Notes: a model not told the origin generated them from the letters alone. Counted from the stretch's first letter, positions 45,129 to 56,910 are shown. The stretch is 64,000 nucleotides of DNA from Synechococcus sp. (GCA_047285805.1 JBJBCN010000003.1:640001-704000); one strand, 5' to 3'. A program made the numbers and translations.

Positions 45129-46358
45129 GTGACGCAGTCCTGGCGATTGATTGCAGGTGGCGTGACGGCGCCCCGGGGCTTTCAAGCCGCCGGGATGACC
45201 GCCGGATTGAAGGCCTCCGGCAAGCCGGACCTCTCGCTCTTGCTGGCCCCTGAGGGCGCCGCCTGTGGGGGGACCTTCACGACCTCGTTGGTGCGGGCGG
45301 CCTGTGTGGACCTTTGCTCCGACCGATTGGCGGCCAGTGGGGGCACCGCCCGGGCGGTGCTCACCAACTCCGGTCAGGCCAACGCCTGCACGGGTGACCG
45401 TGGCCTGATTGACAGCATCCGCGCCACCCAGGCCGTGGCTGACCGCCTTGGGCTCGCCGCTGAAGAGGTCTTGATCTGCTCCACCGGAGTCATTGGGGTC
45501 CCGATCCCGATGGAGACCTTGTTGCAGGCCATCGACCCGCTGGCGGAAGGCCTCTCGTCAGAGGGCGGCCCTGCGGCAGCCCAGGCGATCCTCACGACGG
45601 ACCTGATCGACAAGCAAATCGCTCTTGAGGCTGATCTGGGTGGTCAGACCGTTCGCATCGGTGGGATGGCGAAAGGCTCGGGAATGATTCACCCGAACAT
45701 GGCCACGATGCTCGGCTATCTGAGCTGTGATGCTGGTGTTCCCGCGGAGGTTTGGCAGGGGATGGTCTCCCGCGCCGTGCGGCGCTCCTTCAATGCGATC
45801 ACGGTCGATGGCGACACCAGCACGAACGACACCTATCTGGCCTTTGCGGGCGGTCCCGCCCTTGACCCGGCCCACTACGCGGCCCTGGAAGAGGGGGTGA
45901 CTGCCGTTTCGCAGCATCTGGCCAAGGCGATTGCCCGGGATGGCGAAGGGGCCACCTGTCTCCTGGAAGTGCGGGTCGAAGGAGCCATCAGTGAGGCGGA
46001 TGCCCTGGCTATCGCCCGCACCGTTTGCGGGTCGTCCTTGGTCAAGACCGCTGTCCACGGCCGCGATCCGAACTGGGGCCGGATCGTGGCAGCGGCAGGT
46101 CGAGCAGGTGTTCCGTTCCAGCCCGGGGCCGTCGCGCTCTGGTTAGGGGCACACCAGCTCATGGAAGCAGGTCAACCCTTGGCCTTCAATCGTGCAGCTG
46201 CCTCGGCCTACATGCGCGATCGGGCTGTTGGCGCCTACCTCTTGGAGGACAGTATTCAGATCCGCCTTTCGGTAGGCGATGGCTCAGGTAGCGGCTTTGC
46301 CTGGGGCTGCGATCTCTCTGATCAGTACGTCCGCATCAACGCCGACTACACTACGTAG
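45129..46358 (+). CDS. argJ: Bifunctional ornithine acetyltransferase/N-acetylglutamate synthase
   Basis: NSGQANACTG, KGSGMIHPNMATML, DGDTSTND and YVRINADYTT motifs. The last codons lie within and after attL. Confidence 0.97.
   Translation: MTQSWRLIAGGVTAPRGFQAAGMTAGLKASGKPDLSLLLAPEGAACGGTFTTSLVRAACVDLCSDRLAASGGTARAVLTNSGQANACTGDRGLIDSIRATQAVADRLGLAAEEVLICSTGVIGVPIPMETLLQAIDPLAEGLSSEGGPAAAQAILTTDLIDKQIALEADLGGQTVRIGGMAKGSGMIHPNMATMLGYLSCDAGVPAEVWQGMVSRAVRRSFNAITVDGDTSTNDTYLAFAGGPALDPAHYAALEEGVTAVSQHLAKAIARDGEGATCLLEVRVEGAISEADALAIARTVCGSSLVKTAVHGRDPNWGRIVAAAGRAGVPFQPGAVALWLGAHQLMEAGQPLAFNRAAASAYMRDRAVGAYLLEDSIQIRLSVGDGSGSGFAWGCDLSDQYVRINADYTT
46334..46350 (+). repeat. attL core (17 bp CATCAACGCCGACTACA) in the argJ 3' end
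   Basis: Identical to 54321-54337; extends to 23/26 identity (46325-46350 vs 54312-54337). Confidence 0.92.
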
Positions 46359-46404
46359 TCCAGAACACCTGTATTTGCAAGGGTTCTCAGCTGCGGTAGT
46401 CGTT

Positions 46405-46422
46405 GGGTAACGGTCGGGTAAC
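46405..46422 (+). repeat. Arm-type integrase binding pair (GGGTAAC x2, 11-bp period)
   Basis: Copies at 46405-46411 and 46416-46422; the same motif and spacing recur twice at the right end. Confidence 0.75.
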
Positions 46423-47082
46423 AGACTTGATACACGTGTGGCGGAACCAAAAACGTCTACTGATACGCCACTCACACAAGCATGATTCGTAGGTAGAAAT
46501 ACCTACTTAGATGCTGGTGAAGAGTTGTTGAGACAGTTCTGCGCTGTCCAACTTGGCGCGTATCTGCATCAATGAAAGTTACGCAGAAGAGAAAAACCCA
46601 GTTATGACGCTGGGTTTCGACTCCCTCGTTGTCCAGAAACGCTTGGTTTGGACAAAAGCCGTCCCTTCACGGCTCTAATGGCAATCTATCTCATCGTCTA
46701 AGCGCCCGCAAGATAAGCCTATGAGGCGTGTCTACTCAGGCTTTGGGCTAGTTGGTACAGAAAGACGGTATGAGCGCCTTGCTGGCTGCGTGAGACTTGG
46801 CAGAACGCACCAAATGCAATGAAGCTAAGCATTAGGGCGTGTGAGAAAAGTTCAAGGAGATTACGTAAGTTTGTTGAGAACTAAACACAATCCAATCCTT
46901 AAGTAATAAATCACTCGATCTAGGAGGGGTACTGAAAACGACACCCCGGCACGGGGCTTACTGCGTACTGGTACCTATGTAATACCCCTTGAGAAAAATA
47001 TTTCACTTTTTCTGCTTAGACCACATGCGCCTATGCAAGTCGGTATAAATATAAGTAAGGATGCAAGCCAGAAGAAGCTCAA

Positions 47083-47256
47083 TTATAACGCTTGCTGGCT
47101 GAGCAGATTGAATACTCCAGCCCGAGCAGCTAGCCAATATGCCACATTGTCTGGCTCAGTCGGTCCACTGAAGAAGAAGATCCAAGACGCAAGAAGAGCA
47201 GGACCGAGAGTGCAGTTAATAAGGATTGTATAGAAGATTCTGCCAAACTTTGTCAT
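47083..47256 (-). CDS. 57-aa putative membrane protein (not in the ORF track)
   Basis: MTKFGRIFYTILINCTLGPALLASWIFFFSGPTEPDNVAYWLAARAGVFNLLSQQAL, starting 19 nt after the Zn-finger gene stop. Confidence 0.55.
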   Translation of the reverse strand: MTKFGRIFYTILINCTLGPALLASWIFFFSGPTEPDNVAYWLAARAGVFNLLSQQAL

Positions 47257-47275
47257 TCACATCGATCAGAGGCTT

Positions 47276-47635
47276 TCAGCAATTTAGTTGTTTCCAAGGT
47301 CCTTGTCTAGCTTTACGTTCCTCCTTGTACTCATCGTCCCAAGTCCATGACATCCATCCCATTCTTCGGGCTTCCTCCATTCGGAACCTTTCTCCTGTCC
47401 TCTTCCACGGCATAGGACCATAGACGAAAGGGTTTTTATTGAGACCTAACTCTTTCCACCATCCTTCTTTATGTGGGATGAATGGAGGATTACAAGTCCT
47501 ACATGGACGTGATAGACAGTCTTCTACTGCTTTACTGGTAAGAGATCCTTTTGCTTTTGTTTTTGCTCCACACTGGGAACAAGTGATGATTGTTAGAACT
47601 TTGTTGTCTACATAAGTTTGATTAGCGGTTTTCAT
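47276..47635 (-). CDS. Zn-ribbon (CxxC...CxxC) Trp-rich hypothetical protein
   Basis: CSQC and CRTC pairs. Start at MKTANQ preferred because the upstream extension overlaps RNA structure. Confidence 0.65.
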   Translation of the reverse strand: MKTANQTYVDNKVLTIITCSQCGAKTKAKGSLTSKAVEDCLSRPCRTCNPPFIPHKEGWWKELGLNKNPFVYGPMPWKRTGERFRMEEARRMGWMSWTWDDEYKEERKARQGPWKQLNC

Positions 47636-47692
47636 TTTCTTTGAAGGGTGTTTCGTTAACCATCTCCACAACGGGAAATGGAACGCACCCAA

Positions 47693-47738
47693 GACGAACC
47701 AGTGGAATCGAACCACTGCTGAGTCGCCAGACATTCGT
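47693..47738 (-). ncRNA. Miniature tRNA-like structure 1 (acceptor + T-arm)
   Basis: Minus strand reads ACGAAT...CAGTGG-TTCGATT-CCACTG-GTTCGT-C: canonical T-loop on a 6+6 bp coaxial stack. Confidence 0.5.
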
Positions 47739-47901
47739 TTTACACATTAAGTAATTGGTTAAGTCAGTCCACCCTTCTGACTTCCCGTAGAGCATGACTT
47801 CTACGGGTAGACAACCAACTGGTAATGCTCCAGTTCTTAGATCACTTGATGGTTGCTGCGTATGTCATTAGTCTTGAGTTATTCACCCTCACTTGAAAGT
47901 G

Positions 47902-48192
47902 ATGTACGTCCCTAAGACGTTAATCATTATTTTTCTCATCATTGGGGTCACTATTTACCTAAATACTAATCATCCAAACAATCCTGCTTGGCAGAAGATC
48001 AAGAGTATTTGCGGTGGCATTTTTCTTATTACTGTAGGAGTACCTTTGGCAGGCTTTGGGCTTGGTATCTGGCTATCTGAACAGGCTGGTTGGGACAAGA
48101 ATGGATGGAAAGCGGGTCTTACCACTTTATTCTTTGGCTTTGGATTGCCAGGAACTATTGTTTATGTACTTGTTCTACTGAATGTCTTCTAA
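47902..48192 (+). CDS. Small membrane protein (about 3 TM segments)
   Basis: Hydrophobic stretches LIIIFLIIGVTIYL, GGIFLITVGVPLAGFGLGIWL and LFFGFGLPGTIVYVLVLL. Confidence 0.7.
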   Translation: MYVPKTLIIIFLIIGVTIYLNTNHPNNPAWQKIKSICGGIFLITVGVPLAGFGLGIWLSEQAGWDKNGWKAGLTTLFFGFGLPGTIVYVLVLLNVF

Positions 48193-48366
48193 GTAAGTAT
48201 TTATAGGCTTCAATAAGATCCACGCAGTAAGAGAAATTAATTAAAGTATGTGTGTTCACTCAGTCGCTTCGCTCCTTCGTTCACAACAAATAAGTAAATA
48301 GAAATTTTGTCGTTAGGGTTTACCTCTTTATTCCCTACTTCGTAGTAGGAGGGTAAGGGCTAAAAG

Positions 48367-49548
48367 TCAGTGTTCATCAGGCTTTTGATAGGAAGGATGG
48401 AAATAGGTACCAATCCCGTGGAAGGGTTTCTGATTCTTTGGAATCTTGAGTTCAGGTATGTCCGTTAGAACACGACCCCGATAACGGACTTGTATGGGTT
48501 TCTGCTCAACTGCTTTCATATCGGCTTCTGCCTTATCTCGTACCTTTTTGAGAGTTGCAGTATCTAGTGATTTCCAGTCGCCGTCAAAGTTTTGATCTAA
48601 CCATTCACTTATACGTTCTTGATGCAACTCTTCAAACAAGAGATGAATCATTAATTCGAGTTCATCCTCTGTAAGGTCGCTATCGTCTTCACTATCTAAA
48701 GCCGCTTCTGCATCAATTCTGGATAGACAAAGGTGATGCATGAGTCTTCTTATCTCGGCCTCTCTGTCATCAAACTTGCCTTCATTGAGCAGTTGCTGAA
48801 TCTCCGATTCAAATGGATCCAGTCTCTGCATGCCTAACTGGATCAGTGCATCTATCTCATTGCTGTCTGCATACTTGTTCTCAGCCTTATAAAGGCGACG
48901 CAGCTTCTTTTGCTGCTCCCTCTCCAGATAGCGATCGAACGCGCGTTCTTCGGCTTCATCCCAAGCCTCCTGAGATGCATCCCTGAGGCTGGTGAGCTTA
49001 GTAGGAGCACCATCATGGGCAGAGCTCCACTTTCTAAATAGTTCTTTTTGACTACGCCTGCTGGAATTGTCGAGCTTGGCGAGGTCTTCGATCCTGATTT
49101 GATTTCTAAGCCATATAAAAGAAAGTCTCAGTAGTTCTCCATCTGTTAACCCGACTTCTTTTGCGGCAGCCTGTAATTCTTTCTTTTCGGCGGAAGGAAG
49201 CTTGAGTACTAATTTTTCATTTCTACTCTCATGACCTTTCTCTGTTGCTCCAGACCTGCATCGCTCTAGATCTCTGTCGAGGACAGGACAGCCAGCTGAA
49301 ATAAATTCGTAAATACAAATCCTCAAAGCCTGCCTTTCATTGCACTCAAGCGTATTGCTAAGACCTTCGATAATCTGCGTTTCTTGGTGCGATACGACCG
49401 CCTTAAGAGATGCAGCGCATCTTTCTCTTGATTGGTTGATCGGGTGCTTTTCAGTATTGAAGCGGAACTGCTTAATGCAGAAGTAGTAGAGGATTCCTTT
49501 GTCTGCAGAGCCAAGCCGCCTGCTCTGGTTGTATTTGTTCTGTGGCAT
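48367..49548 (-). CDS. Hypothetical protein with two ribbon-helix-helix-like units and a charged helical C-terminus
   Basis: SLKAVVSHQETQIIEGLSNTLECNERQALRICI and KLVLKLPSAEKKELQAAAKEVGLTDGELLRLSF both fit the beta-alpha-alpha RHH pattern. Confidence 0.7.
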   Translation of the reverse strand: MPQNKYNQSRRLGSADKGILYYFCIKQFRFNTEKHPINQSRERCAASLKAVVSHQETQIIEGLSNTLECNERQALRICIYEFISAGCPVLDRDLERCRSGATEKGHESRNEKLVLKLPSAEKKELQAAAKEVGLTDGELLRLSFIWLRNQIRIEDLAKLDNSSRRSQKELFRKWSSAHDGAPTKLTSLRDASQEAWDEAEERAFDRYLEREQQKKLRRLYKAENKYADSNEIDALIQLGMQRLDPFESEIQQLLNEGKFDDREAEIRRLMHHLCLSRIDAEAALDSEDDSDLTEDELELMIHLLFEELHQERISEWLDQNFDGDWKSLDTATLKKVRDKAEADMKAVEQKPIQVRYRGRVLTDIPELKIPKNQKPFHGIGTYFHPSYQKPDEH

Positions 49549-49869
49549 TGTCGTTCTTAATGTGTATGTGTAATGCCTGTATGGCTCTCTGTGCAGCGTT
49601 ATGCACAGGCTATATGGGATGTGATGGATTGCCAGCCAGAGTCGGCTTCCTGGCGCTCTTTGACTGATTGCGCCTGTCGGTCAGCGCGTGCTCTGGCGCA
49701 GCAGTCCAGATTGGACGATTCGTCCAGTCGATGCCGAGAACCCTTGGCATGACTGGGTTTCGCCTCCTCGTCTGCGCCTCTCGCCTCGTGCTGGCGGGTT
49801 GCAGAAATCGTGGCGGCACTTGTGCTTTGTCCTGCTGGTAGATAGTTTTGTCGCAGGTGCGCCTTCTTG

Positions 49870-50475
49870 ATGTCCGAGATCGTTGACGTTGTCGAATCTC
49901 TAGACGTAAGAGACGCCGATAAAGTCGTGCTTCCAGAGAGCGCGGTGGTCGGCTGCAACGGGGTGCAGATCCAGTTGATGAAGGAAACTGTTGCCAGTGT
50001 GCAAACGAGTTTTGCTGTTGCTGGTGCTGCTATGCGTAGTGCCGCGCAGGAGCTTTATCACCTGCGTGGAGCGCTGGCTAAGCGGAAGCTTTGGAATCAG
50101 TTCATTAAGAGCGGTGCTCTGCCTATCTCGCCAAAGGTTGCTCAGGACTTGGCGAATGGCTGGGATAAGTGGCTGAAGGACAGCGACCTTTCAGATGGTG
50201 CTCTGATCAATCTCTCCTCTCGGACTCTTAATCGCATCGCCAACGCTGATCCTGAGGTTCAGATGAAGGCTACGAAGACCCTCAAGGCGGGTAAGAAAGT
50301 CACCGAGAAGATGGCGGATGACTGGATCAAAAACCTCTCTTCCGAGTATCAAGGAAAGGTGATGACGATCACCAAGAAGGCAGGTGAGGTGGGCAAACTC
50401 AAGGCGAGGATTAAGGAACTGGAGAAAGAGAACAGAGAACTAAAAGAGAAGTACGCATCCTTCATGGCTCAGTGA
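49870..50475 (+). CDS. DUF3102-like phage protein with C-terminal coiled coil
   Basis: AQELYHLR...LWNQFI...ISPKVAQDLAN and LSSRTLNRIA...LKAGKKVT resemble DUF3102-type proteins (pattern recall). Confidence 0.65.
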   Translation: MSEIVDVVESLDVRDADKVVLPESAVVGCNGVQIQLMKETVASVQTSFAVAGAAMRSAAQELYHLRGALAKRKLWNQFIKSGALPISPKVAQDLANGWDKWLKDSDLSDGALINLSSRTLNRIANADPEVQMKATKTLKAGKKVTEKMADDWIKNLSSEYQGKVMTITKKAGEVGKLKARIKELEKENRELKEKYASFMAQ

Positions 50476-50479
50476 TCTG

Positions 50480-50674
50480 ATGTCCCCAATTCCTCCTCGT
50501 CACTACCCTCCCAACGTTTACGGGTTTATTGACTATGCGTCTCGCATATCTCGTCCTGCTGGTTGGAAGCACGATATGTGCGGCGACATTTGCAAGTACT
50601 CGCTCAACACAGCAGTTATCAGGACGATGATCGAGACGAATGGAATTGACTACTACAAGACCGTTGCGTTATGA
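50480..50674 (+). CDS. Small hypothetical protein (paralog A, CxxxC)
   Basis: Starts 4 nt after the previous stop, has an ATGA overlap with the next gene, and is similar to the next ORF. Confidence 0.6.
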   Translation: MSPIPPRHYPPNVYGFIDYASRISRPAGWKHDMCGDICKYSLNTAVIRTMIETNGIDYYKTVAL

Positions 50675-50862
50675 CCATCCCACCACGCTATGCACACAAC
50701 GTTGTTGCATTTAAAAAGCAGGAAGGTCCAACCCTTCTTGTGCGTTGTCAGTGCGATCTGTGTGCAAACGATAAGCAATCAACTTATCTGCATAGCCTGC
50801 GACTAATGATCGAACTGCAGCAATTGGATGCTGATAAGTTCTCATTGCGAAGAGCAGCCTGA
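50671..50862 (+). CDS. Small hypothetical protein (paralog B, CxCxxC)
   Basis: Translationally coupled; shares IPPR-Y..NV..F and R.MIE with the previous ORF. Confidence 0.6.
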   Translation: MTIPPRYAHNVVAFKKQEGPTLLVRCQCDLCANDKQSTYLHSLRLMIELQQLDADKFSLRRAA

Positions 50863-50965
50863 TGGACGAATCTGCAGGCTTTGATTTGGTATTGGGTTGA
50901 ACTAATGTAAAGACTGAGACCATTGCCAATAGACGCAGGCTTAAGCTGCAAAAAGCCGTTTATCT

Positions 50966-51400
50966 ATGATGTATCTAGCCCAGAATGCAAGTCATTGCTC
51001 GACTAACTACCTTGAGTTCTCCTTATATCTGGATCAGAAACTACGGGAATGTGCTCTCAATATTGAGAAGCAGGCAAAAGAGAAAGAGCATATCAGCAAT
51101 GTCCAAGTAAATACTAAAAAAGAAATGGAGGAGCACGAGAAAGTCGCTCCTGAAGTCGTTCACGTGAAGGTCTCTCGGCCCTTTGATAAGTCCTTGGCTG
51201 CTATAGAAGCGAATGAATGGCTGGAATTCTGTATGTGGCTAGTTGTCCTGAGCATTGAGGCTTATGAAGCCCTGCGCCCATTTCTAAAGACGCTTCAGCC
51301 CAATCGTAATACGAAAGCAGCTCTTTCCCAATTAAGAGGTGAACTTGGCAGGATATTCCGTTTTAATGCACATGTCTATTCCGCAATGCAATCGGCCTAA
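50966..51400 (+). CDS. Hypothetical protein
   Basis: 144-aa ORF in AT-rich DNA, co-oriented with the operon. Confidence 0.55.
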   Translation: MMYLAQNASHCSTNYLEFSLYLDQKLRECALNIEKQAKEKEHISNVQVNTKKEMEEHEKVAPEVVHVKVSRPFDKSLAAIEANEWLEFCMWLVVLSIEAYEALRPFLKTLQPNRNTKAALSQLRGELGRIFRFNAHVYSAMQSA

Positions 51401-51489
51401 TGGACGACTTCTCAAGCCTTTGGCTGCTACTTGCTTTTATGCCTGTGATCTATGTCATGGCATTCGTACAACGACTGGCAAAGAACTAG
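51400..51489 (+). CDS. 29-aa single-TM peptide (not in the ORF track)
   Basis: MDDFSSLWLLLAFMPVIYVMAFVQRLAKN; TAATG coupling; stop overlaps the convergent gene's stop. Confidence 0.45.
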   Translation: MDDFSSLWLLLAFMPVIYVMAFVQRLAKN

Positions 51490-52559
51490 AAGTCTTGCAT
51501 TAATGGGTTAGGGGTCTTATCCCTGTACAACTCTGGAAAGTTGAGCCTGTGTTGTTCCAGTCCATACGCAAGAACTGCAGCCATGTCCTCCTTAAATGGA
51601 CTGGCTCCTAATGCAGCTCGGCGAAGGTGATACTCACGATTGCGAGGATCAACTTGAGGGTCGCTCAGGCCATCTTGTACTGCTTTTGTTGCCGCTTGGG
51701 GTTGCTCTACTGACGATTCTTGTTTGGATTGTTGCAGTGCAGAGTTCTGCTGCTTGAACTGACGAACAAGTTTCTCCTGTTCCTCAAGGTTTTGCGCTGA
51801 GCGAAGTTGTCGCATTTGTTTTTGGTTGAATTGGGATAGAAGTGATTCTTGAGCAGAGCCAAAACGTGGGTTTGGCTTATTCATGTCCGCAATCCGCTTA
51901 CGCATTACATCAATCTGTGTTTGGATTTCTTCGGTACTTGGTTGCAGTCCTTGTTGTCGTTGTTGCTCTACATCCTTTTTGACTTGAGCAAATATCTCTT
52001 GCCATTCATCAAATGTGAGTCCATCTCTGTCGCCAAAGATCGCTTCAGACCCTGCATAAAGACCACGAGCAAGTTTTTCTGCTAACCAGCCAATGGCAGG
52101 TTGTGCTGCCTGTTCAATCGCCATTGCAGCGCCAGCAGCAGCGAGGTTGGCACCGACGGCAGGTATAGGAGCAAGACGAACAGCACCACCCTTGGTGACT
52201 AGCTGCATCTTCATAGGTTGTGGCTGAGGTACAGATGGTGCTGAGAACGTCCCAGAAGGCTTCAGAGACGCTCCTGCACCCTCGCCTAATGCCTGACGCT
52301 GTACAGCGCCCATAGCAGCCTGCTGACGCGCTTGTGCAGCACGGAGTTGATTCTTGTTGGTAGTCGCATCAGGTTTGTCGATGTACCTGGTGTTCGGGTT
52401 GTTCTGTTCTTTGATCTGTCGTGCTGCTTCACGACCAGGATCGGTAGATGATTGTGATGAATGTGCACTTGGACCTTGGATTAGTTCTGTCTGTACCGCA
52501 GACGCAGCAGTAGTACTCGGACGCATACCGCGCCTGTGTTGGTATTTGTTTTTAGGCAT
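51486..52559 (-). CDS. Gln/Ala-rich, partly disordered/coiled-coil hypothetical protein
   Basis: 357-aa ORF with an Ala/Gly hydrophobic centre and Q-rich helices. Confidence 0.75.
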   Translation of the reverse strand: MPKNKYQHRRGMRPSTTAASAVQTELIQGPSAHSSQSSTDPGREAARQIKEQNNPNTRYIDKPDATTNKNQLRAAQARQQAAMGAVQRQALGEGAGASLKPSGTFSAPSVPQPQPMKMQLVTKGGAVRLAPIPAVGANLAAAGAAMAIEQAAQPAIGWLAEKLARGLYAGSEAIFGDRDGLTFDEWQEIFAQVKKDVEQQRQQGLQPSTEEIQTQIDVMRKRIADMNKPNPRFGSAQESLLSQFNQKQMRQLRSAQNLEEQEKLVRQFKQQNSALQQSKQESSVEQPQAATKAVQDGLSDPQVDPRNREYHLRRAALGASPFKEDMAAVLAYGLEQHRLNFPELYRDKTPNPLMQDF

Positions 52560-52588
52560 TGTCTAATTGTTATTACCTGTAATTGATC

Positions 52589-52627
52589 AAAAGAAAAAGC
52601 CCACCGGTTTGATCAGAACCGGCAGGC
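52589..52627 (-). terminator. Intrinsic terminator downstream of the integrase and tRNA-like element
   Basis: Minus strand GCCTGCCGGTT-loop-AACCGGTGGGC-TTTTTCTTTT. Confidence 0.75.
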
Positions 52628-52629
52628 AA

Positions 52630-52691
52630 GGACTGGCGATGGAATCAAACCACCGAAGCAACTAACTAATTGCTTCTACTTCAGTTCAGTC
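52630..52691 (-). ncRNA. Miniature tRNA-like structure 2 (no D-arm)
   Basis: Minus strand GACTG...GAAGCAA-8nt-TTGCTTC-GGTGG-TTTGATT-CCATC-GC-CAGTC-C. Confidence 0.5.
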
Positions 52692-52725
52692 ATTGGTAAG
52701 TGTTTTCTTATTTGTGCGTCCTTGA

Positions 52726-54174
52726 TTACTGCGTCCACTCAAGGTGGTCTTCTGCTTTCTTAAGCGACTTCCTACCCTTTCCGAGAATCTCGGTTGCTTC
52801 ATCGGCACGGTAGTGGAAGTAATGATCTTCGATGTACTGCATACTTGTATCTGTATTGGCAGCAAGTACGGGTAGCGGTGTTCCCGCTTTAAGTCGCATC
52901 GTGATGTGCGTATGGCGGAATGAATACCACGTGATGTTCTTCCCCGACTTCATGTCAACCTTGCGGCAACTATTGGAATCATCTTCACTCCAGTCAGCAA
53001 GACGTGCTTCGACTAATGCTTCACAGAATCCATCACGCCTTATGCGTTCACTGAACATCCGTCCATCACGTTGATTGCAAAAGATGTAGTCATCCTTTTT
53101 GCTGTGCTTGGTGACTTCCCGAATCTTTTCAAGGTGTGCAGCAATAGGCGCTGAGATTCTGTAGTACCTACCAGTCTTAGTGTTTTCAGGTGGTACTTCG
53201 ATGATGATCCACGTCTTCCTTTCTGCCTTGGGAATGGATGTGTTTTCGGAGATGTGTTTCCACTGCACTTTCCACAATGAACCGGGTCTTATTCCCGTAT
53301 CCATCATGATCCGCATTGCGTAGTAGAGAAGTTTGCGGTGGATAAGTTGGTTCGTACTGCGCTCACCTTTCCCAGTCACTTTCTGCTTGGTGACATATGA
53401 AGAACCTTTCTTCAAAGGCTCACCATCACTGTCTAGTTGCCGCTCTAGCCCGTTGATCCAGTAGAGGCGAGAGGCGCGTTCTAGTTCCAGCCATTCGCGC
53501 TCTGTAAGGTCATCCCTGCGGTGCTTCTTATCCTTCGGTAGCTTGATGCTGGGTATCTGAGGAAGGCTGTCGCGTGAGACATAGCCCTGAGCTATACCAA
53601 CCTCATCAAAAGCTCTCTTGAGCGTTGACATTTCTTGGAGGATTGTTGTCTGTACTGGAATCTGTTTGCCGAACTCCAGTGCTCTTTCTTTCCTCCACGT
53701 CTCATAGTTCAGGAACGCCGAGCGTTTGAACTTATGAATAATCTTCTTATCGTCACCGACATAATCACGAACCCAGCGTAGTTGAGTCTCAAGTAAGCGA
53801 TACCTGGCGGCAGAGATTCCCTGGTGTGGGATAGAACTTATCTTCTTCTTTTCCTTTGAAAGGAACTCCTTGCACATATTTCCGAATCCCAGTGAGCGTA
53901 TTGCTTCGCCTCTATCAGCCTTAGCCTTTAGTTCCATGTACATGGCTAACCCAAGCATCCAAGCCTGCTCTTGGGTTTCACTAATAGGTTCTGGTGCTAC
54001 GCCGTTGTGATCCTTGAGCGCAAACCTATGCCTTGTGCCAGCAAAGCGATCGTAAAAATACAGATGCCATCTACCACCCTTGTCTCCACGCCGATAGACA
54101 TAGGAGTAGGGATCAGTAGGAATGTCCTTTCTATCAAGGACGTTCTGTGTTTTCCGCAGTGCTGCGGCAGGCAT
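52726..54174 (-). CDS. Tyrosine recombinase / phage-type integrase
   Basis: N-terminal arm-binding-like beta domain; catalytic R (DTGIRP), K (NTKTG), YSFRH and C-terminal Tyr (DHY); adjacent to attR. Confidence 0.93.
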   Translation of the reverse strand: MPAAALRKTQNVLDRKDIPTDPYSYVYRRGDKGGRWHLYFYDRFAGTRHRFALKDHNGVAPEPISETQEQAWMLGLAMYMELKAKADRGEAIRSLGFGNMCKEFLSKEKKKISSIPHQGISAARYRLLETQLRWVRDYVGDDKKIIHKFKRSAFLNYETWRKERALEFGKQIPVQTTILQEMSTLKRAFDEVGIAQGYVSRDSLPQIPSIKLPKDKKHRRDDLTEREWLELERASRLYWINGLERQLDSDGEPLKKGSSYVTKQKVTGKGERSTNQLIHRKLLYYAMRIMMDTGIRPGSLWKVQWKHISENTSIPKAERKTWIIIEVPPENTKTGRYYRISAPIAAHLEKIREVTKHSKKDDYIFCNQRDGRMFSERIRRDGFCEALVEARLADWSEDDSNSCRKVDMKSGKNITWYSFRHTHITMRLKAGTPLPVLAANTDTSMQYIEDHYFHYRADEATEILGKGRKSLKKAEDHLEWTQ

Positions 54175-54176
54175 TT

Positions 54177-54254
54177 GGGTAACGCTTTGGTAACACCAGC
54201 ACCATCACCACAGCGTTTTTACGTGATGACTGTTCTAGGTAACACCAGGGTAAC
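54177..54254 (+). repeat. Two pairs of arm-type GGTAAC repeats (11-bp period)
   Basis: Pairs at 54177/54188 and 54237/54248; three copies read GGTAACACCAG. Confidence 0.8.
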
Positions 54255-54320
54255 ACCAGTGCTGTCGGAGCGCAACCCTGTCATAGCAAGGGGTCTGGCC
54301 GCAACATGCATGTACGTATC

Positions 54321-54337
54321 CATCAACGCCGACTACA
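54321..54337 (+). repeat. attR core / displaced argJ 3' end
   Basis: Identical 17-mer; reads YVSINADYMT* in the argJ frame (TAA at 54343-54345). Confidence 0.92.
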
Positions 54338-54349
54338 TGACCTAAAGCC

Positions 54350-54886
54350 ATGCCTACGATCAAACACCATCGACCAGTTGAGATGGCTAAGGCCGGAGCA
54401 CCCCATAAGCTGGCTCCGAGTGGTCTCCCCCGGATCTGGATGGGTCCGTTGGTGGCAGGGGTCAGCTTCGCTTTGGCCTATGGGATCACCCACCGCCTGA
54501 GCGCCATCAACCTGGGCGATTTCATTCGCCTGAGCCCTCGTTTTGAGCAAAAGCAGACCCCTGGGGTGAGCCTCAAGGACATGCGCTTGCGTTACGGCGA
54601 ACAGCCGTCGGAACTGCGTTCCGATCTCGATCCCCAGCAGTTGGAGCTGTTGCGCAAGGCTGAGGAGCATGCCGAAGCGCTCGAGAAGGCCAAGGCGGAT
54701 GCCGAAGCCAAAGCCGAGCGTGAAGCCGCCGGCCAGGCCGCTCCGCCGAAGCCCGCTCAATCCGCCAAGCCAGCAACCAACCAGGCCGAAGAGCCACCGG
54801 TTGCGCCAAAGCCCCAATTGCAGACCCCTGCACCCAACAGGCCGCAGTCATCGGTTCCTCTCTTGGACTTGCCTCCCCTTCAGTAG
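54350..54886 (+). CDS. Hypothetical membrane-anchored protein with Pro/Ala-rich tail
   Basis: WMGPLVAGVSFALAYGITHRL TM segment; host-like GC resumes. Start may be 54383. Confidence 0.7.
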   Translation: MPTIKHHRPVEMAKAGAPHKLAPSGLPRIWMGPLVAGVSFALAYGITHRLSAINLGDFIRLSPRFEQKQTPGVSLKDMRLRYGEQPSELRSDLDPQQLELLRKAEEHAEALEKAKADAEAKAEREAAGQAAPPKPAQSAKPATNQAEEPPVAPKPQLQTPAPNRPQSSVPLLDLPPLQ

Positions 54887-54928
54887 CTCCGATCTGCCAC
54901 GATTTGGGTGACTCTCGAGCGGTCCGCC

Positions 54929-55243
54929 ATGAGTGAGCCTCAGACCCTTGTTCAGGCGGCCCTTAATCGTCTGAGTGCCCGCCTGGGAAGCGGTCTTGCG
55001 GATGCCGCTGCTGGCCTTACGGTCCTGGCCCAAGACGCCCCCGACCGTTTGCGCCAGGAGTGGGACCTTTTTAAAGAAGAGGTGGAGCTCGAAGCCCAAC
55101 GGCTCGAGCATGGCGAGCAGGAGGTGCCGGCGGCGGAGTCCGTCATGGCCTCGTCTTCTCCACCGCTAGATCCCCAGCAACAGATCGATCAGCTCCGCGC
55201 CCAGGTCACTCGCTTGGCCCGCCGCCTCGAGGGGCCCGCTTGA
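54929..55243 (+). CDS. Conserved hypothetical coiled-coil protein
   Basis: Coupled to the ABC1 kinase start (TGATG). Confidence 0.7.
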   Translation: MSEPQTLVQAALNRLSARLGSGLADAAAGLTVLAQDAPDRLRQEWDLFKEEVELEAQRLEHGEQEVPAAESVMASSSPPLDPQQQIDQLRAQVTRLARRLEGPA

Positions 55244-56910
55244 TGAGCCGCCTTGGACCTGCACTGGTGAGCGCGCTTCGCTCCCTGCGGATCTGGTCTG
55301 CCGTTCTTCAGCTCCTGCTGTTTCTTTGGTGGGATGCTCAATCCTGGAGTTATCCCGGCGGTGTCACCCAGGATCGGCAAGAGCTCCGCCAGCGGCGCCG
55401 TGCCCGCTGGCTGACGACCCAGTTGCTCGCGTTGGGGTCGGCGTTCATCAAGTTGGGTCAGTTGCTCTCGGCCAGGCCGGATGTCTTGCCGGCCAGTTGG
55501 GTCGCGGAACTTTCCAGCCTTCAGGACAGCGTCCCGGCCTTCTCCTTTGATACGGCACAGTCTCTTCTGGAGCAGGAGCTCGGTGAGCGCTGTGCCGAGA
55601 TCATCGATATCGAAGAGCAGCCCCTCGGCGCCGCCAGTCTGGCTCAGGTGCATCGAGCCAGCCTCCGCAGTGGCCGGCAGGTGGTCTTCAAGATCCAACG
55701 GCCTGGTTTGGAGCGCCTCTTCCGCCTGGACCTCGAGGTCATGCAACAGGTGGCTGCGGTGCTGCAGCGCCATCCCCAGTGGGGGGTGGGACGCGATTGG
55801 GTCTCCATCGCTCAGGAATGTCGACGCGTGCTGCTGCGGGAGCTCGATTTCCGCCTGGAGGCCGAACATGCCGCCCGTTTCCGCCAGCAATTTCTGGATG
55901 ATGCGGGCATTCGAATTCCAGCGGTCGTCTGGGAACTCACCACCCGCCGGGTGCTCTGCCTCGACTATGTGCCCGGGATCAAGATCAACGACCGCCAGGC
56001 CCTGATTGAGGCCGGCATCGATCCCTCAGCCGTCGCCGAAAAAGGCGCAGCCAGCTACCTGCAGCAGCTGGTGTGCTTTGGATTCTTCCATGCCGATCCC
56101 CACCCTGGGAATTTAGCTGTAGCCCGTGATGGCGCTCTCATCTACTACGACTTCGGCATGGTCGGCACCTTGTCTCAGCGTCTGCGTAGTCGTCTGGGCC
56201 GGATGGTGACCGCCGCCGCCGCTCGGGACGCGTCGAGCCTCGTGTGTGAACTCCAGGCCGCCGGTGTCATCGCCACCGAAATTGATCCGGGCCCGGTACG
56301 CCGCATGGTGCGCGTGATGCTCGCGGAGGCCCTCACGCCGCCGTTCTCCCCCAATATCCTCGACAAACTCTCCGGCGATCTCTACGACTTGGTCTACGGG
56401 CAGCCTTTCCGTCTGCCCCCGGAGCTGATCTTCGTGATGCGGGCCCTCTCCACCTTTGAGGGGGTCGGCCGCAGCCTGGATCCCAGCTTTAGCCTCGTGG
56501 CCATCGCCCGTCCCTATCTGCTTCCGCTCATGACCGCCAGTGGCAACGGACCCAACGATCTCTTCAATCAGTTGGGGCGTCAGGCCGTCGAAGTCGGGAG
56601 CCGTGCCTTGGGATTGCCCCAGCGCCTGGAGGACAGCCTTAGCCGGATCGAGCAGGGTGATCTCCAGGTGCAGATTCGCGCCGGTGAAACCGATCGTTTG
56701 CTGCGCCGTCTGGCCCTGAGTCAGCAGAGCGCGGGGCAATCCGTGCTGCTTGGCGCTCTCACCATCGCAGCCGCGATGCTCGCAGTCAGCACCAAGCCGG
56801 CTTTGACCTGCATTCCTGTGGTCGCCGGTGTCCCGGTGGGTCTGAGCTGGTTGAAGCTGCAGGCCCGTCTCAAGCGCGACGCCCGCATCGACAAGCTCGG
56901 CAATTCCTGA
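55243..56910 (+). CDS. ABC1/AarF/UbiB-family kinase
   Basis: IKLGQLLSARPD, AASLAQVH, FFHADPHPGN and YDFGM motifs. Confidence 0.95.
   Translation: MSRLGPALVSALRSLRIWSAVLQLLLFLWWDAQSWSYPGGVTQDRQELRQRRRARWLTTQLLALGSAFIKLGQLLSARPDVLPASWVAELSSLQDSVPAFSFDTAQSLLEQELGERCAEIIDIEEQPLGAASLAQVHRASLRSGRQVVFKIQRPGLERLFRLDLEVMQQVAAVLQRHPQWGVGRDWVSIAQECRRVLLRELDFRLEAEHAARFRQQFLDDAGIRIPAVVWELTTRRVLCLDYVPGIKINDRQALIEAGIDPSAVAEKGAASYLQQLVCFGFFHADPHPGNLAVARDGALIYYDFGMVGTLSQRLRSRLGRMVTAAAARDASSLVCELQAAGVIATEIDPGPVRRMVRVMLAEALTPPFSPNILDKLSGDLYDLVYGQPFRLPPELIFVMRALSTFEGVGRSLDPSFSLVAIARPYLLPLMTASGNGPNDLFNQLGRQAVEVGSRALGLPQRLEDSLSRIEQGDLQVQIRAGETDRLLRRLALSQQSAGQSVLLGALTIAAAMLAVSTKPALTCIPVVAGVPVGLSWLKLQARLKRDARIDKLGNS

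Follow-up and report, generated by a model that had tools for sequence, protein, structure and literature searches.

A small argJ-targeting integrative element of Synechococcus sp. and its circular or tandem relatives in metagenomes

A 64,000-nucleotide stretch of a Synechococcus sp. genome (GCA_047285805.1, JBJBCN010000003.1:640001-704000; the whole stretch is called the window here, and positions are counted from its first letter) carries a 7,987-bp unit inserted at the 3' end of argJ. In our reading, this unit is intact and belongs to a family of small elements, driven by an integrase, that target argJ in marine picocyanobacteria; it likely excises as an 8-kb circle and would need outside help beyond its own genes, and we put the probability of this reading at roughly 0.7. 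Circular or tandem units of relatives in metagenomes, together with closest relatives that bear a polymerase gene, indicate that the window element is likely still mobile.

Results

An integrative unit between two copies of the argJ end

The GC content of the window drops from 0.63-0.67 to 0.40-0.55 at about 46,350-54,340, and the 7,987-bp unit as a whole has a GC content of 0.471 versus 0.627 for the flank. An exact 17-bp direct repeat, CATCAACGCCGACTACA, is present at 46333-46349 and 54320-54336; it is embedded in an imperfect 33-nt repeat, and its two copies lie 7,987 bp apart. argJ (Pfam ArgJ, 6e-137) terminates ...INADYTT* at 46358, its last codons being formed by the left copy, and the right copy is followed by a relic argJ end, ...INADYMT*, with its stop at 54345. 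The flanks of the insertion are cyanobacterial (gatB-coaE-argJ). Arm repeats of the form GGTAAC-N4-GGTAAC occur at 46403, near the left attachment site (attL), and at 54175 and 54235, spaced 60 bp, between the right attachment site (attR) and the integrase start. This three-site layout is repeated in the element of a same-genus genome, G125, and the metagenome contig L097 has two sites, 60 bp apart.

Empty sites define the insertion further. A survey of 31 same-genus genomes gave 27 argJ loci, 10 of which are empty, with argJ running directly into two downstream genes; a gap of about 1 kb follows argJ in 4 and more than 1.5 kb of sequence in 12, including the window genome and G125, and 1 is interrupted by a contig end. 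Empty attachment sites (attB) have the sequence ...CGCATCAACGCCGAYTACACSACS-stop. Rightward of the window attR, the sequence is similar to that downstream of the empty sites; to the right of the attL core it is unlike both attR and the empty sites, and the reading frame is preserved. Taken together, the repeats, the duplicated argJ ends, the GC shift and the empty sites establish a real integrative unit and, on sequence comparison, locate the predicted crossover within the 17-bp core. An earlier note on this DNA had described an AT-richer unit of this length with attachment cores, arm repeats and an intact tyrosine integrase; GC content, repeats and empty sites all agree with that description. 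The features concerned are as follows.

46333-46349, plus strand: attL core, the exact 17-bp direct repeat in the last argJ codons; aligns with the empty attB of 10 same-genus genomes
46350-46358, plus strand: last argJ codons and stop (...YTT*), element-supplied by comparison with attR and the empty sites
52599-52627, minus strand: terminator-like hairpin following the integrase gene, with 11 pairs and then a T-run (terminator scan)
52726-54174, minus strand: intact tyrosine integrase, 482 amino acids (phrog_1, 1.6e-21; PF00589, 6e-6)
54175-54255, strand not assigned: pair of arm-type GGTAAC repeat sites lying upstream of the integrase gene, laid out as in G125 and L097
54320-54336, plus strand: attR core, followed by the relic host argJ end (to 54345), from the repeat and the empty-site comparison

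In an alignment of 13 integrase sequences, R296, R420, H421, H451 and Y452/Y455 are invariant; we take these to be the catalytic residues of a tyrosine recombinase. The ratio of nonsynonymous to synonymous divergence (dN/dS) of the integrase is 0.03-0.05 against its relatives. Between the window and G125 the ratio is 0.043, which by this sequence measure indicates purifying selection on the integrase. The synonymous divergence (dS) in the same comparison is 0.82 for the integrase versus 0.19 for the flanking argJ and 0.31 for gatB, so the elements of the window and of G125 were not simply co-inherited with their hosts. Integrase identity is also independent of host identity: in same-genus G299, argJ is 80% identical to that of the window and the integrase 53%.

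Free forms of the family in metagenomes

Scanning metagenome contigs with the integrase alignment returned 222 relatives, of which 80 were analysed. Exact terminal overlaps of 123 or 127 bp are present in seven contigs (L097, L101, L102, L105, L109, L122, L145), and near-exact ones in L110 (130 bp, 99.2%) and L132 (140 bp, 97.1%). Contigs L102 and L105 are 99.96-99.97% identical, and L109 and L110 are 100% and 99.8% identical over two aligned pieces; in all there are seven distinct circular-or-tandem units of 4,727-8,773 bp. Each unit has one attachment core and no argJ body, the core of L132 being read twice inside its 140-bp overlap.

The contigs closest to the window element are in the free form as well. 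An attP-type junction is found in 5/5 contigs (L092-L096) whose integrase is 97-98% identical to the window's: the left arm of the window element (47014 down to 46325) continues via the core into its integrase end (54337 downward). The L097 circle, when rotated, reads attP, integrase, a homolog of p202 (75%; genes of the window element are named as in the second list below), polymerase and small open reading frames (ORFs) over 8,630 bp, and its match to the left arm is limited to about 90 bp adjoining the core. Integrated forms also occur in metagenomes: 10 loci have host downstream genes adjoining the core, and 6 have argJ at the far end; the remaining metagenome loci are too short to be classified as integrated or free. 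The attP junction of the argJ-element family thus physically exists in nature, as a circle or a tandem.

A T7-type RNA polymerase in the closest relatives

The G125 integrase is 94% identical to the window's, and its element encodes an 822-amino-acid T7-type RNA polymerase (L031:6611-9079; PF00940 2.7e-45, phrog_414 2.4e-136). Polymerase genes are also present in L093 (28-2025), L094 (4778-7138) and L097, with PF00940 matches of 9e-48, 6.5e-42 and 4.9e-48, and the enzyme of the circular unit L097 is complete at 828 amino acids. Motifs A, B and C, by the patterns that we take to define them, are present in the element polymerases. Like the enzymes of the T7-like cyanophages P60, Syn5, S-CBP1 and SS120-1, those of G125, L093, L094 and L097 are single-subunit polymerases. 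They differ in sequence, their best phage matches being enzymes of cyanopodoviruses of 42.6-47.4 kb at 27-29% identity, and in setting, since the carriers are argJ-type integrative elements of 8.6-11 kb with no other phage gene.

The window element belongs to this sub-lineage. It has the left arm, the zn152 region and the integrase in common with G125, and the middle differs. L094 has the gene order attP-int-q357-small ORFs-p64-p202-polymerase, and p393 and tm99 occupy the polymerase slot in the window. A sequence of roughly 35 nt before the p393 start also precedes the polymerase start in L094 and G125; this motif (49558-49590) is single-copy in the window and is likewise a single-copy motif upstream of the polymerase. 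No repeated 11-mers that could serve as promoter-like repeats are common to the polymerase-bearing relatives and the window. With p393 and tm99 in the polymerase slot behind a common upstream sequence, the window element is best described, from gene order and sequence, as a polymerase-less variant of a sub-lineage that usually carries the polymerase.

This bears on how gene-poor the element is. Integrase is the only gene of the window element recognised by Pfam and PHROGs, about nine others being orphans. Searched at E<=0.1, neither database gave a primase, helicase, relaxase, capsid, terminase or AlpA for the window, in agreement with the earlier note. That note had further placed the element in a stripped-down class. 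The missing replication and packaging genes fit such a description, and the state is nevertheless partly a cassette swap in a sub-lineage that normally has a polymerase.

The argJ family in genomes

The integrase lineage was detected in 50 of 401 family genomes (E<=1e-10), and the 13 best full-length integrase matches were retrieved for locus comparison; the genome of the window itself has a single match to the argJ-type integrase. In all 12 loci readable at both ends (the window and 11 others) the integrase adjoins a duplicated argJ 3' end, and the argJ elements span 3.6-16.1 kb; in L039 and L040 the host downstream genes are beside the integrase as elsewhere, argJ lying beyond the stretch compared. 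The view that the target is a protein-coding gene and not a tRNA gene is upheld by these 12 loci, and ARAGORN finds 0 tRNAs in the window.

Integrase is the sole component common to all compared argJ elements. Their cargo is very different and includes Nif11-leader peptides, a CHAT-TPR protein, DruA, resolvases, methyltransferases and YadA-anchor proteins, the resolvases of L038, L042, L043, L109 and L122 being of the tnpR type. Capsid, terminase, primase, helicase and relaxase genes are absent from the scanned ORFs of the relatives, in genome loci and metagenome units alike. A larger prophage or an integrative and conjugative element (ICE), which the earlier note had named as what the relatives might turn out to be, is not what is found at argJ: the relatives measure 3.6-16 kb, and 4.7-8.8 kb as circles, and have no structural or conjugation genes. 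We likewise rejected a degraded prophage or ICE as the origin of the window element, as relatives at argJ are without structural, lysis and conjugation genes and the RNA polymerase is their sole phage-type gene.

More distant integrases extend this picture. No tRNA gene lies within the 5-11 kb covered at any of the 10 loci of relatives with 23-31% identity. A distance of about 190 bp separates three integrases with 23-27% identity from the argJ 3' end; their arrangement is the opposite one, integrase beside attL (L175:2991-5657, L176:3245-5880 and L177:3237-6019, in G384, G306 and G236), and a distant integrase in L181 is at argJ in the same arrangement as in the window. The second lineage in L175-L177 makes argJ a hotspot for more than one integrase lineage. 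In two same-genus genomes (L178:3150-6546, L179:859-4250), integrases with 25% identity abut the 3' end of a flavodiiron-type gene whose product has metallo-beta-lactamase and flavin reductase domains. Because distant integrases are found at both argJ and flavodiiron-type genes, a preference for the ends of conserved protein-coding genes seems to be general in this group of integrases, as far as locus sequences can tell.

Several individual loci deserve mention. Arrays of five to six Nif11-leader peptide genes are the cargo of argJ elements in L032:6004-8446 (G076) and L033:7573-11599 (G032). The 10-kb argJ element of a low-GC (0.35) host, G227, encodes a 1,224-amino-acid TPR-CHAT protein and a zinc-peptidase-like gene (L036:9820-14280), and it also contains an integrase fragment, which suggests stacked insertions. 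One contig of G138 (L039:3193-13942) has, in tandem, two argJ-type integrases of full length, which share 53% and 46% identity with that of the window, and an integrase fragment, an arrangement expected under successive insertions at one site.

Other genes and non-coding DNA of the window element

The remaining features of the element are the following.

46359-47014, strand not assigned: conserved non-coding left arm, 656 bp, containing one arm-type site (46403-46423); identity 79-83% to G125 and L092-L096
46618-46593 and 46957-46943, minus strand: terminator-like hairpins in the left arm (terminator scan)
47276-47734, minus strand: zn152, small Cys-rich protein whose true start is probably further downstream; homologs in G125, L093 and L096
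47700-47718, minus strand: T-arm-like hairpin CAGTGGTTCGATTCCACTG, 1 match versus 0.17 expected by chance
47893-48192, plus strand: tm99, small hydrophobic ORF; no Pfam or PHROG family match
48367-49548, minus strand: p393, predicted tandem ribbon-helix-helix protein with an acidic helical tail (structure model and Foldseek)
49549-49866, strand not assigned: divergent intergenic control region; the conserved motif 49558-49590 ends about 10 nt before the p393 start
49867-50475, plus strand: p202, coiled-coil protein; homologs with 75% identity in circle L097 and 42% in L094
50480-50674 and 50671-50862, plus strand: p64 and p63, a pair of small paralogous ORFs; L094 has p64 with 90% identity
50966-51400, plus strand: p144, orphan ORF; no Pfam or PHROG match and no homolog in the relatives compared
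51486-52559, minus strand: q357, Gln-rich protein; N-terminal 30 and C-terminal 55 amino acids conserved

For p393, the tandem ribbon-helix-helix (RHH) label given by the earlier note gains support from structure prediction. The AlphaFold2 (AF2) model, with a mean predicted local distance difference test (pLDDT) score of 62, has two strand-helix-helix modules (amino acids 44-85 and 111-150) and a tail of about 240 amino acids that is acidic and predicted to be helical. Among solved structures, Foldseek ranks small F-plasmid relaxosome chains first (E 0.02, TM-score by target 0.6-0.69), with DndE and the tandem-RHH regulator AvtR next. The relaxosome-chain matches are consistent with a weak NikA-like match in Pfam (E 0.07); the p393 profile has no match at E<=10 against PDB sequences. 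Homologs of p393 adjoin family integrases in L032, L033, L036, L098 and L099, and another, in L180, adjoins a 25%-identical integrase at another locus.

The label DUF3102-like for p202 stands in part. By language-model features alone, p202 resembles DUF3102 (ESM Atlas, 0.91) and plasmid-partition N-terminal clusters; neither it nor its 36 homologs have a Pfam match. No Pfam or PHROG family match was obtained for p64 and p63. The zn152 homolog in G125 is 70% identical over amino acids 24-142, and zn152 has no Pfam, PHROG or phage match. In the lagoon metagenome run X4, contigs of the zn152 region (47444-47767) have a summed depth of about 200-400 versus 2-16 for the remainder of the element, which suggests that this segment is also present in other, more abundant contexts.

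Among the accessory genes, q357 is the one shared most widely, with 168 homologs in metagenomes and a few named Synechococcus genomes. It is found in L092-L096, L034/L035, the circles L101, L102 and L145, and islands with other integrases; the low-GC islands that hold homologs include those of G281, G009 and G272, the last an argJ island without integrase. Its AF2 model (pLDDT 57) and best Atlas score (0.81) are uninformative. The island of G281 (its second locus, L090:5836-14138) is flanked by glyQ and a ubiE-type methyltransferase gene; besides the q357 homolog it contains a different integrase (463 amino acids) and an Mrr-ParA fusion protein. Both p393 and q357 begin MP(Q/K)NKY (49545-49548 and 52556-52559, minus strand) and have a similar start context, GACAATGCC...AACAAATAC; beyond the MPxNKY start the two proteins have no significant similarity (BLASTP E 0.16).

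Much of the non-coding DNA had been called structured, and for the left arm this holds in part. The arm folds better than shuffled sequences on both strands (z -3.3 and -4.6, from only 20 shuffles each), and about 480 bp adjoining the core are conserved in seven aligned sequences with the hairpins retained. In RNAalifold, double changes occur at only 8/151 predicted pairs of the left arm, so a functional structure is not established. The same note had proposed tRNA-like elements. One T-arm-like hairpin, at 47700-47718, answers to this, and G125 holds two related copies of it; beyond the ARAGORN result, Rfam (E<=1, 45500-55500) returned three chance-level matches only. The terminus-like site to which that note refers was not located.

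Outside the element, the gene 3' of the insertion site (54350-54886) encodes 178 amino acids with a Pro/Ala/Gln-rich tail. Identity among its relatives is 30-52%, and its place between argJ and an ABC1-kinase-like gene is constant.

Discussion

We propose that the window element still works as an integrative unit. Its integrase would bind the three GGTAAC arm sites and recombine within the 17-bp core, and the element's own copy of the argJ end would keep the gene whole after insertion. In this scheme p393 would act as a DNA-binding regulator at the divergent control region 49549-49866. The element would likely leave the chromosome as an 8-kb circle, and its copying and transfer would rely on host enzymes, phage or vesicles.

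Several observations weigh against this proposal. No excisionase was recognised in the window element. The terminal overlaps of the metagenome units fit a true circle and a tandem array alike, and the free forms are known from assembled contigs. The exact gene set of the window is absent among the circles seen; in L092-L096, q357 is only 61-67% identical, and two of these contigs carry the polymerase instead of p393. Finally, the three sequencing runs of the strain itself each gave one contig across the integrated element and no attB or attP junction, although contigs drop rare variants and this absence is therefore weak evidence.

That last result would be expected if the unit had integrated once and were now a fixed genomic island, immobile, with genes retained for host benefit only. 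The related G125 element at the identical site with matching arms and the drift of the relic argJ end (DYMT versus DYTT) point the same way. We consider a fixed island very improbable, because the attachment cores are identical, the three arm sites are intact and the integrase is full length with a dN/dS of 0.03-0.05. In addition, integrase dS versus G125 is about threefold the value for the flanking host genes, contrary to simple co-inheritance, and near-identical integrases are on attP-form contigs in 5 metagenome assemblies. The circular assemblies of relatives imply an attP form abundant enough to be assembled, which would suit an integrative plasmid-like episome. Here, the excised element would replicate from the hairpin-rich left arm by host replication primed by transcription, the primer coming from the relatives' own polymerase or, in the window element, from host RNA polymerase, and spread would be by vesicles or free-DNA uptake. 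The roughly 480 bp of conserved non-coding DNA beside attP, with stable hairpins and terminators, the likeness of p202, by features only, to DUF3102 and plasmid-partition N-terminal clusters, and the enrichment of tycheposon genes in vesicles, as given in the available part of the tycheposon preprint (10.1101/2020.12.28.424599), argue for it. Against it, a Rep, a primase or a partition ATPase is not recognised in the window by Pfam or PHROGs, conservation of the left arm is confined to the closest sub-lineage (in L097, about 90 bp beside the core match), and its covariation is too weak for a structure call. We hold an episome to be a tentative possibility, unlikely on balance.

The earlier note had favoured a candidate satellite of a T7-like cyanophage. 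As such a satellite, the element would excise on infection, be copied by helper or host, and enter podovirus capsids as a concatemer of five to six copies by means of cis signals. Its small size and the lack of packaging or replication genes recognisable by Pfam and PHROGs are in line with this idea, as are the relatives in circular or tandem attP form and the full-length T7-type RNA polymerases of the closest relatives, whose best phage matches are in cyanopodoviruses of 42.6-47.4 kb. There is also precedent, so far as the available text of the sources goes, in gene-poor marine satellites that are packaged as concatemers, the phage-inducible chromosomal minimalist islands (PICMI) and the integrative mobile elements that are encapsidated in virions (VEIMEs). 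Against it, the 7,987 bp have no blastn match, and integrase, p202, zn152 and q357 no tblastn match, in 50,697 phage records. IMG/VR, queried with the integrase alone, the 13-sequence integrase alignment, a 53-sequence q357 alignment and the G125 polymerase, gave no relatives of integrase, q357 or the element polymerase, although hallmark-less elements may not be filed there. The polymerase is just 27-29% identical to the phage enzymes and is absent from the window element. The phage genome sizes fall between the 39.9 kb of five copies and the 47.9 kb of six, without a match to either. T7-like packaging cuts at specific concatemer junctions, and no such cutting site was identified in the window element; nor do the contigs of the strain's three runs hold an excision junction. 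We judge the satellite reading unlikely, and a T7-like helper specifically less likely still. That the family as a whole consists of satellites of T7-like cyanophages, its polymerase or cis sequences recruiting helper machinery and its concatemers travelling in podovirus capsids, seems to us quite improbable.

An intact, integrase-driven argJ element, the reading we prefer, resembles several described systems, which we compare from the parts of the respective sources available to us. The tycheposon preprint (10.1101/2020.12.28.424599) describes tRNA-targeting elements with replication modules in Prochlorococcus, and 436 of its 937 elements are cryptic, with no hallmark gene beyond integrase and excisionase. 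Tycheposons and the argJ element alike have a picocyanobacterial host, a site-specific tyrosine recombinase and, as flanks, a full and a partial copy of the target; small size and variable cargo with defence-type and orphan genes are also common to both, cryptic elements included. They differ in that tycheposon targets are seven tRNA or tmRNA genes and the argJ element uses the 3' end of a protein-coding gene, and in that the primase, helicase and polymerase replication hallmarks of tycheposons are missing from the window and from the relatives' scanned ORFs, as judged with Pfam and PHROGs. In Synechococcus, tycheposon-like insertions at tRNA-Phe beside the phycobilisome rod region (Grebert et al., 2022; PMC8995045) likewise have the integrase distal, beside the target remnant, and tnpR-type resolvases among their cargo. 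They are distinguished by the tRNA-Phe target and a larger size (up to 22.8 kb), and the available part of that paper does not mention circular forms. A relic-prophage preprint (10.1101/325100) that we also considered concerns, in its available text, a 70-kb tRNA-bounded island unrelated to the argJ element.

Satellites and conjugative systems offer further parallels. PICMI are islands of Vibrionaceae with three core proteins for excision and replication, AlpA as key regulator and a demonstrated helper phage (PMC10803314). Reduced gene content, the lack of capsid-remodelling genes and insertion beside or within a housekeeping gene are features that the argJ element has as well; it differs in host and in target, which is fis for PICMI, and the window is without the AlpA and the primase/replication protein that PICMI encode (Pfam, PHROGs). 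VEIMEs were detected as concatemers in sequence reads of purified virions (Eppley et al., 2022; PMC9618062). They too are small marine elements, mostly with tyrosine integrases and without capsid genes, some are linked to Cyanobacteria, and some also have no known replication gene. VEIMEs are, however, defined by virion concatemers, whereas the argJ elements are known from genomes and metagenome contigs, and serine recombinases dominate the cyanobacteria-linked VEIME module, unlike the tyrosine integrase at argJ. The hallmarks of phage-inducible chromosomal islands, namely a master repressor or AlpA, pri-rep, terS and capsid-morphogenesis genes, are not found in the window by Pfam or PHROGs. 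Compared with an integrative mobilizable element, the window has no relaxase by the same searches and offers only the TraY/NikA-like RHH fold predicted for p393. Accessory proteins of the TraY/NikA type (F relaxosome, 9f0x) have an RHH fold like the two modules of p393, with weak E values of 0.02 and 0.07; p393 differs by its added acidic helical tail of about 240 amino acids, and no relaxase or oriT was identified with it.

Gene-poor integrative elements of this general kind are thus already published, as the cryptic elements of the tycheposon preprint and the VEIMEs, by the available text of both. What distinguishes the present family is the argJ target, the free forms of 4.7-8.8 kb and the sub-lineage with a T7-type RNA polymerase. 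A limited literature search returned no paper that links argJ with an integrase in Synechococcus or with attB, none that describes a phage satellite or integrative mini-element with a single-subunit RNA polymerase, and none on a T7-like polymerase in a Synechococcus island. We regard the family as undescribed, set apart from tycheposons and VEIMEs by the main-text descriptions of these; the element lists of those papers could hold members.

Marine picocyanobacteria are, to our knowledge, without plasmids, conjugation and, largely, prophages, and how their genomic islands move is for that reason an open question. The argJ family brings to it a whole integrase lineage that uses the end of a protein-coding gene and not a tRNA, with elements readable both in the integrated state and as free units of a few kb, circular or tandem. 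Their cargo extends from arrays of Nif11-type peptides through defence-type genes to a T7-type RNA polymerase. With attB, attP and the integrase known, these elements provide a concrete system, testable by polymerase chain reaction, in which to study the copying of such elements and their passage from cell to cell.

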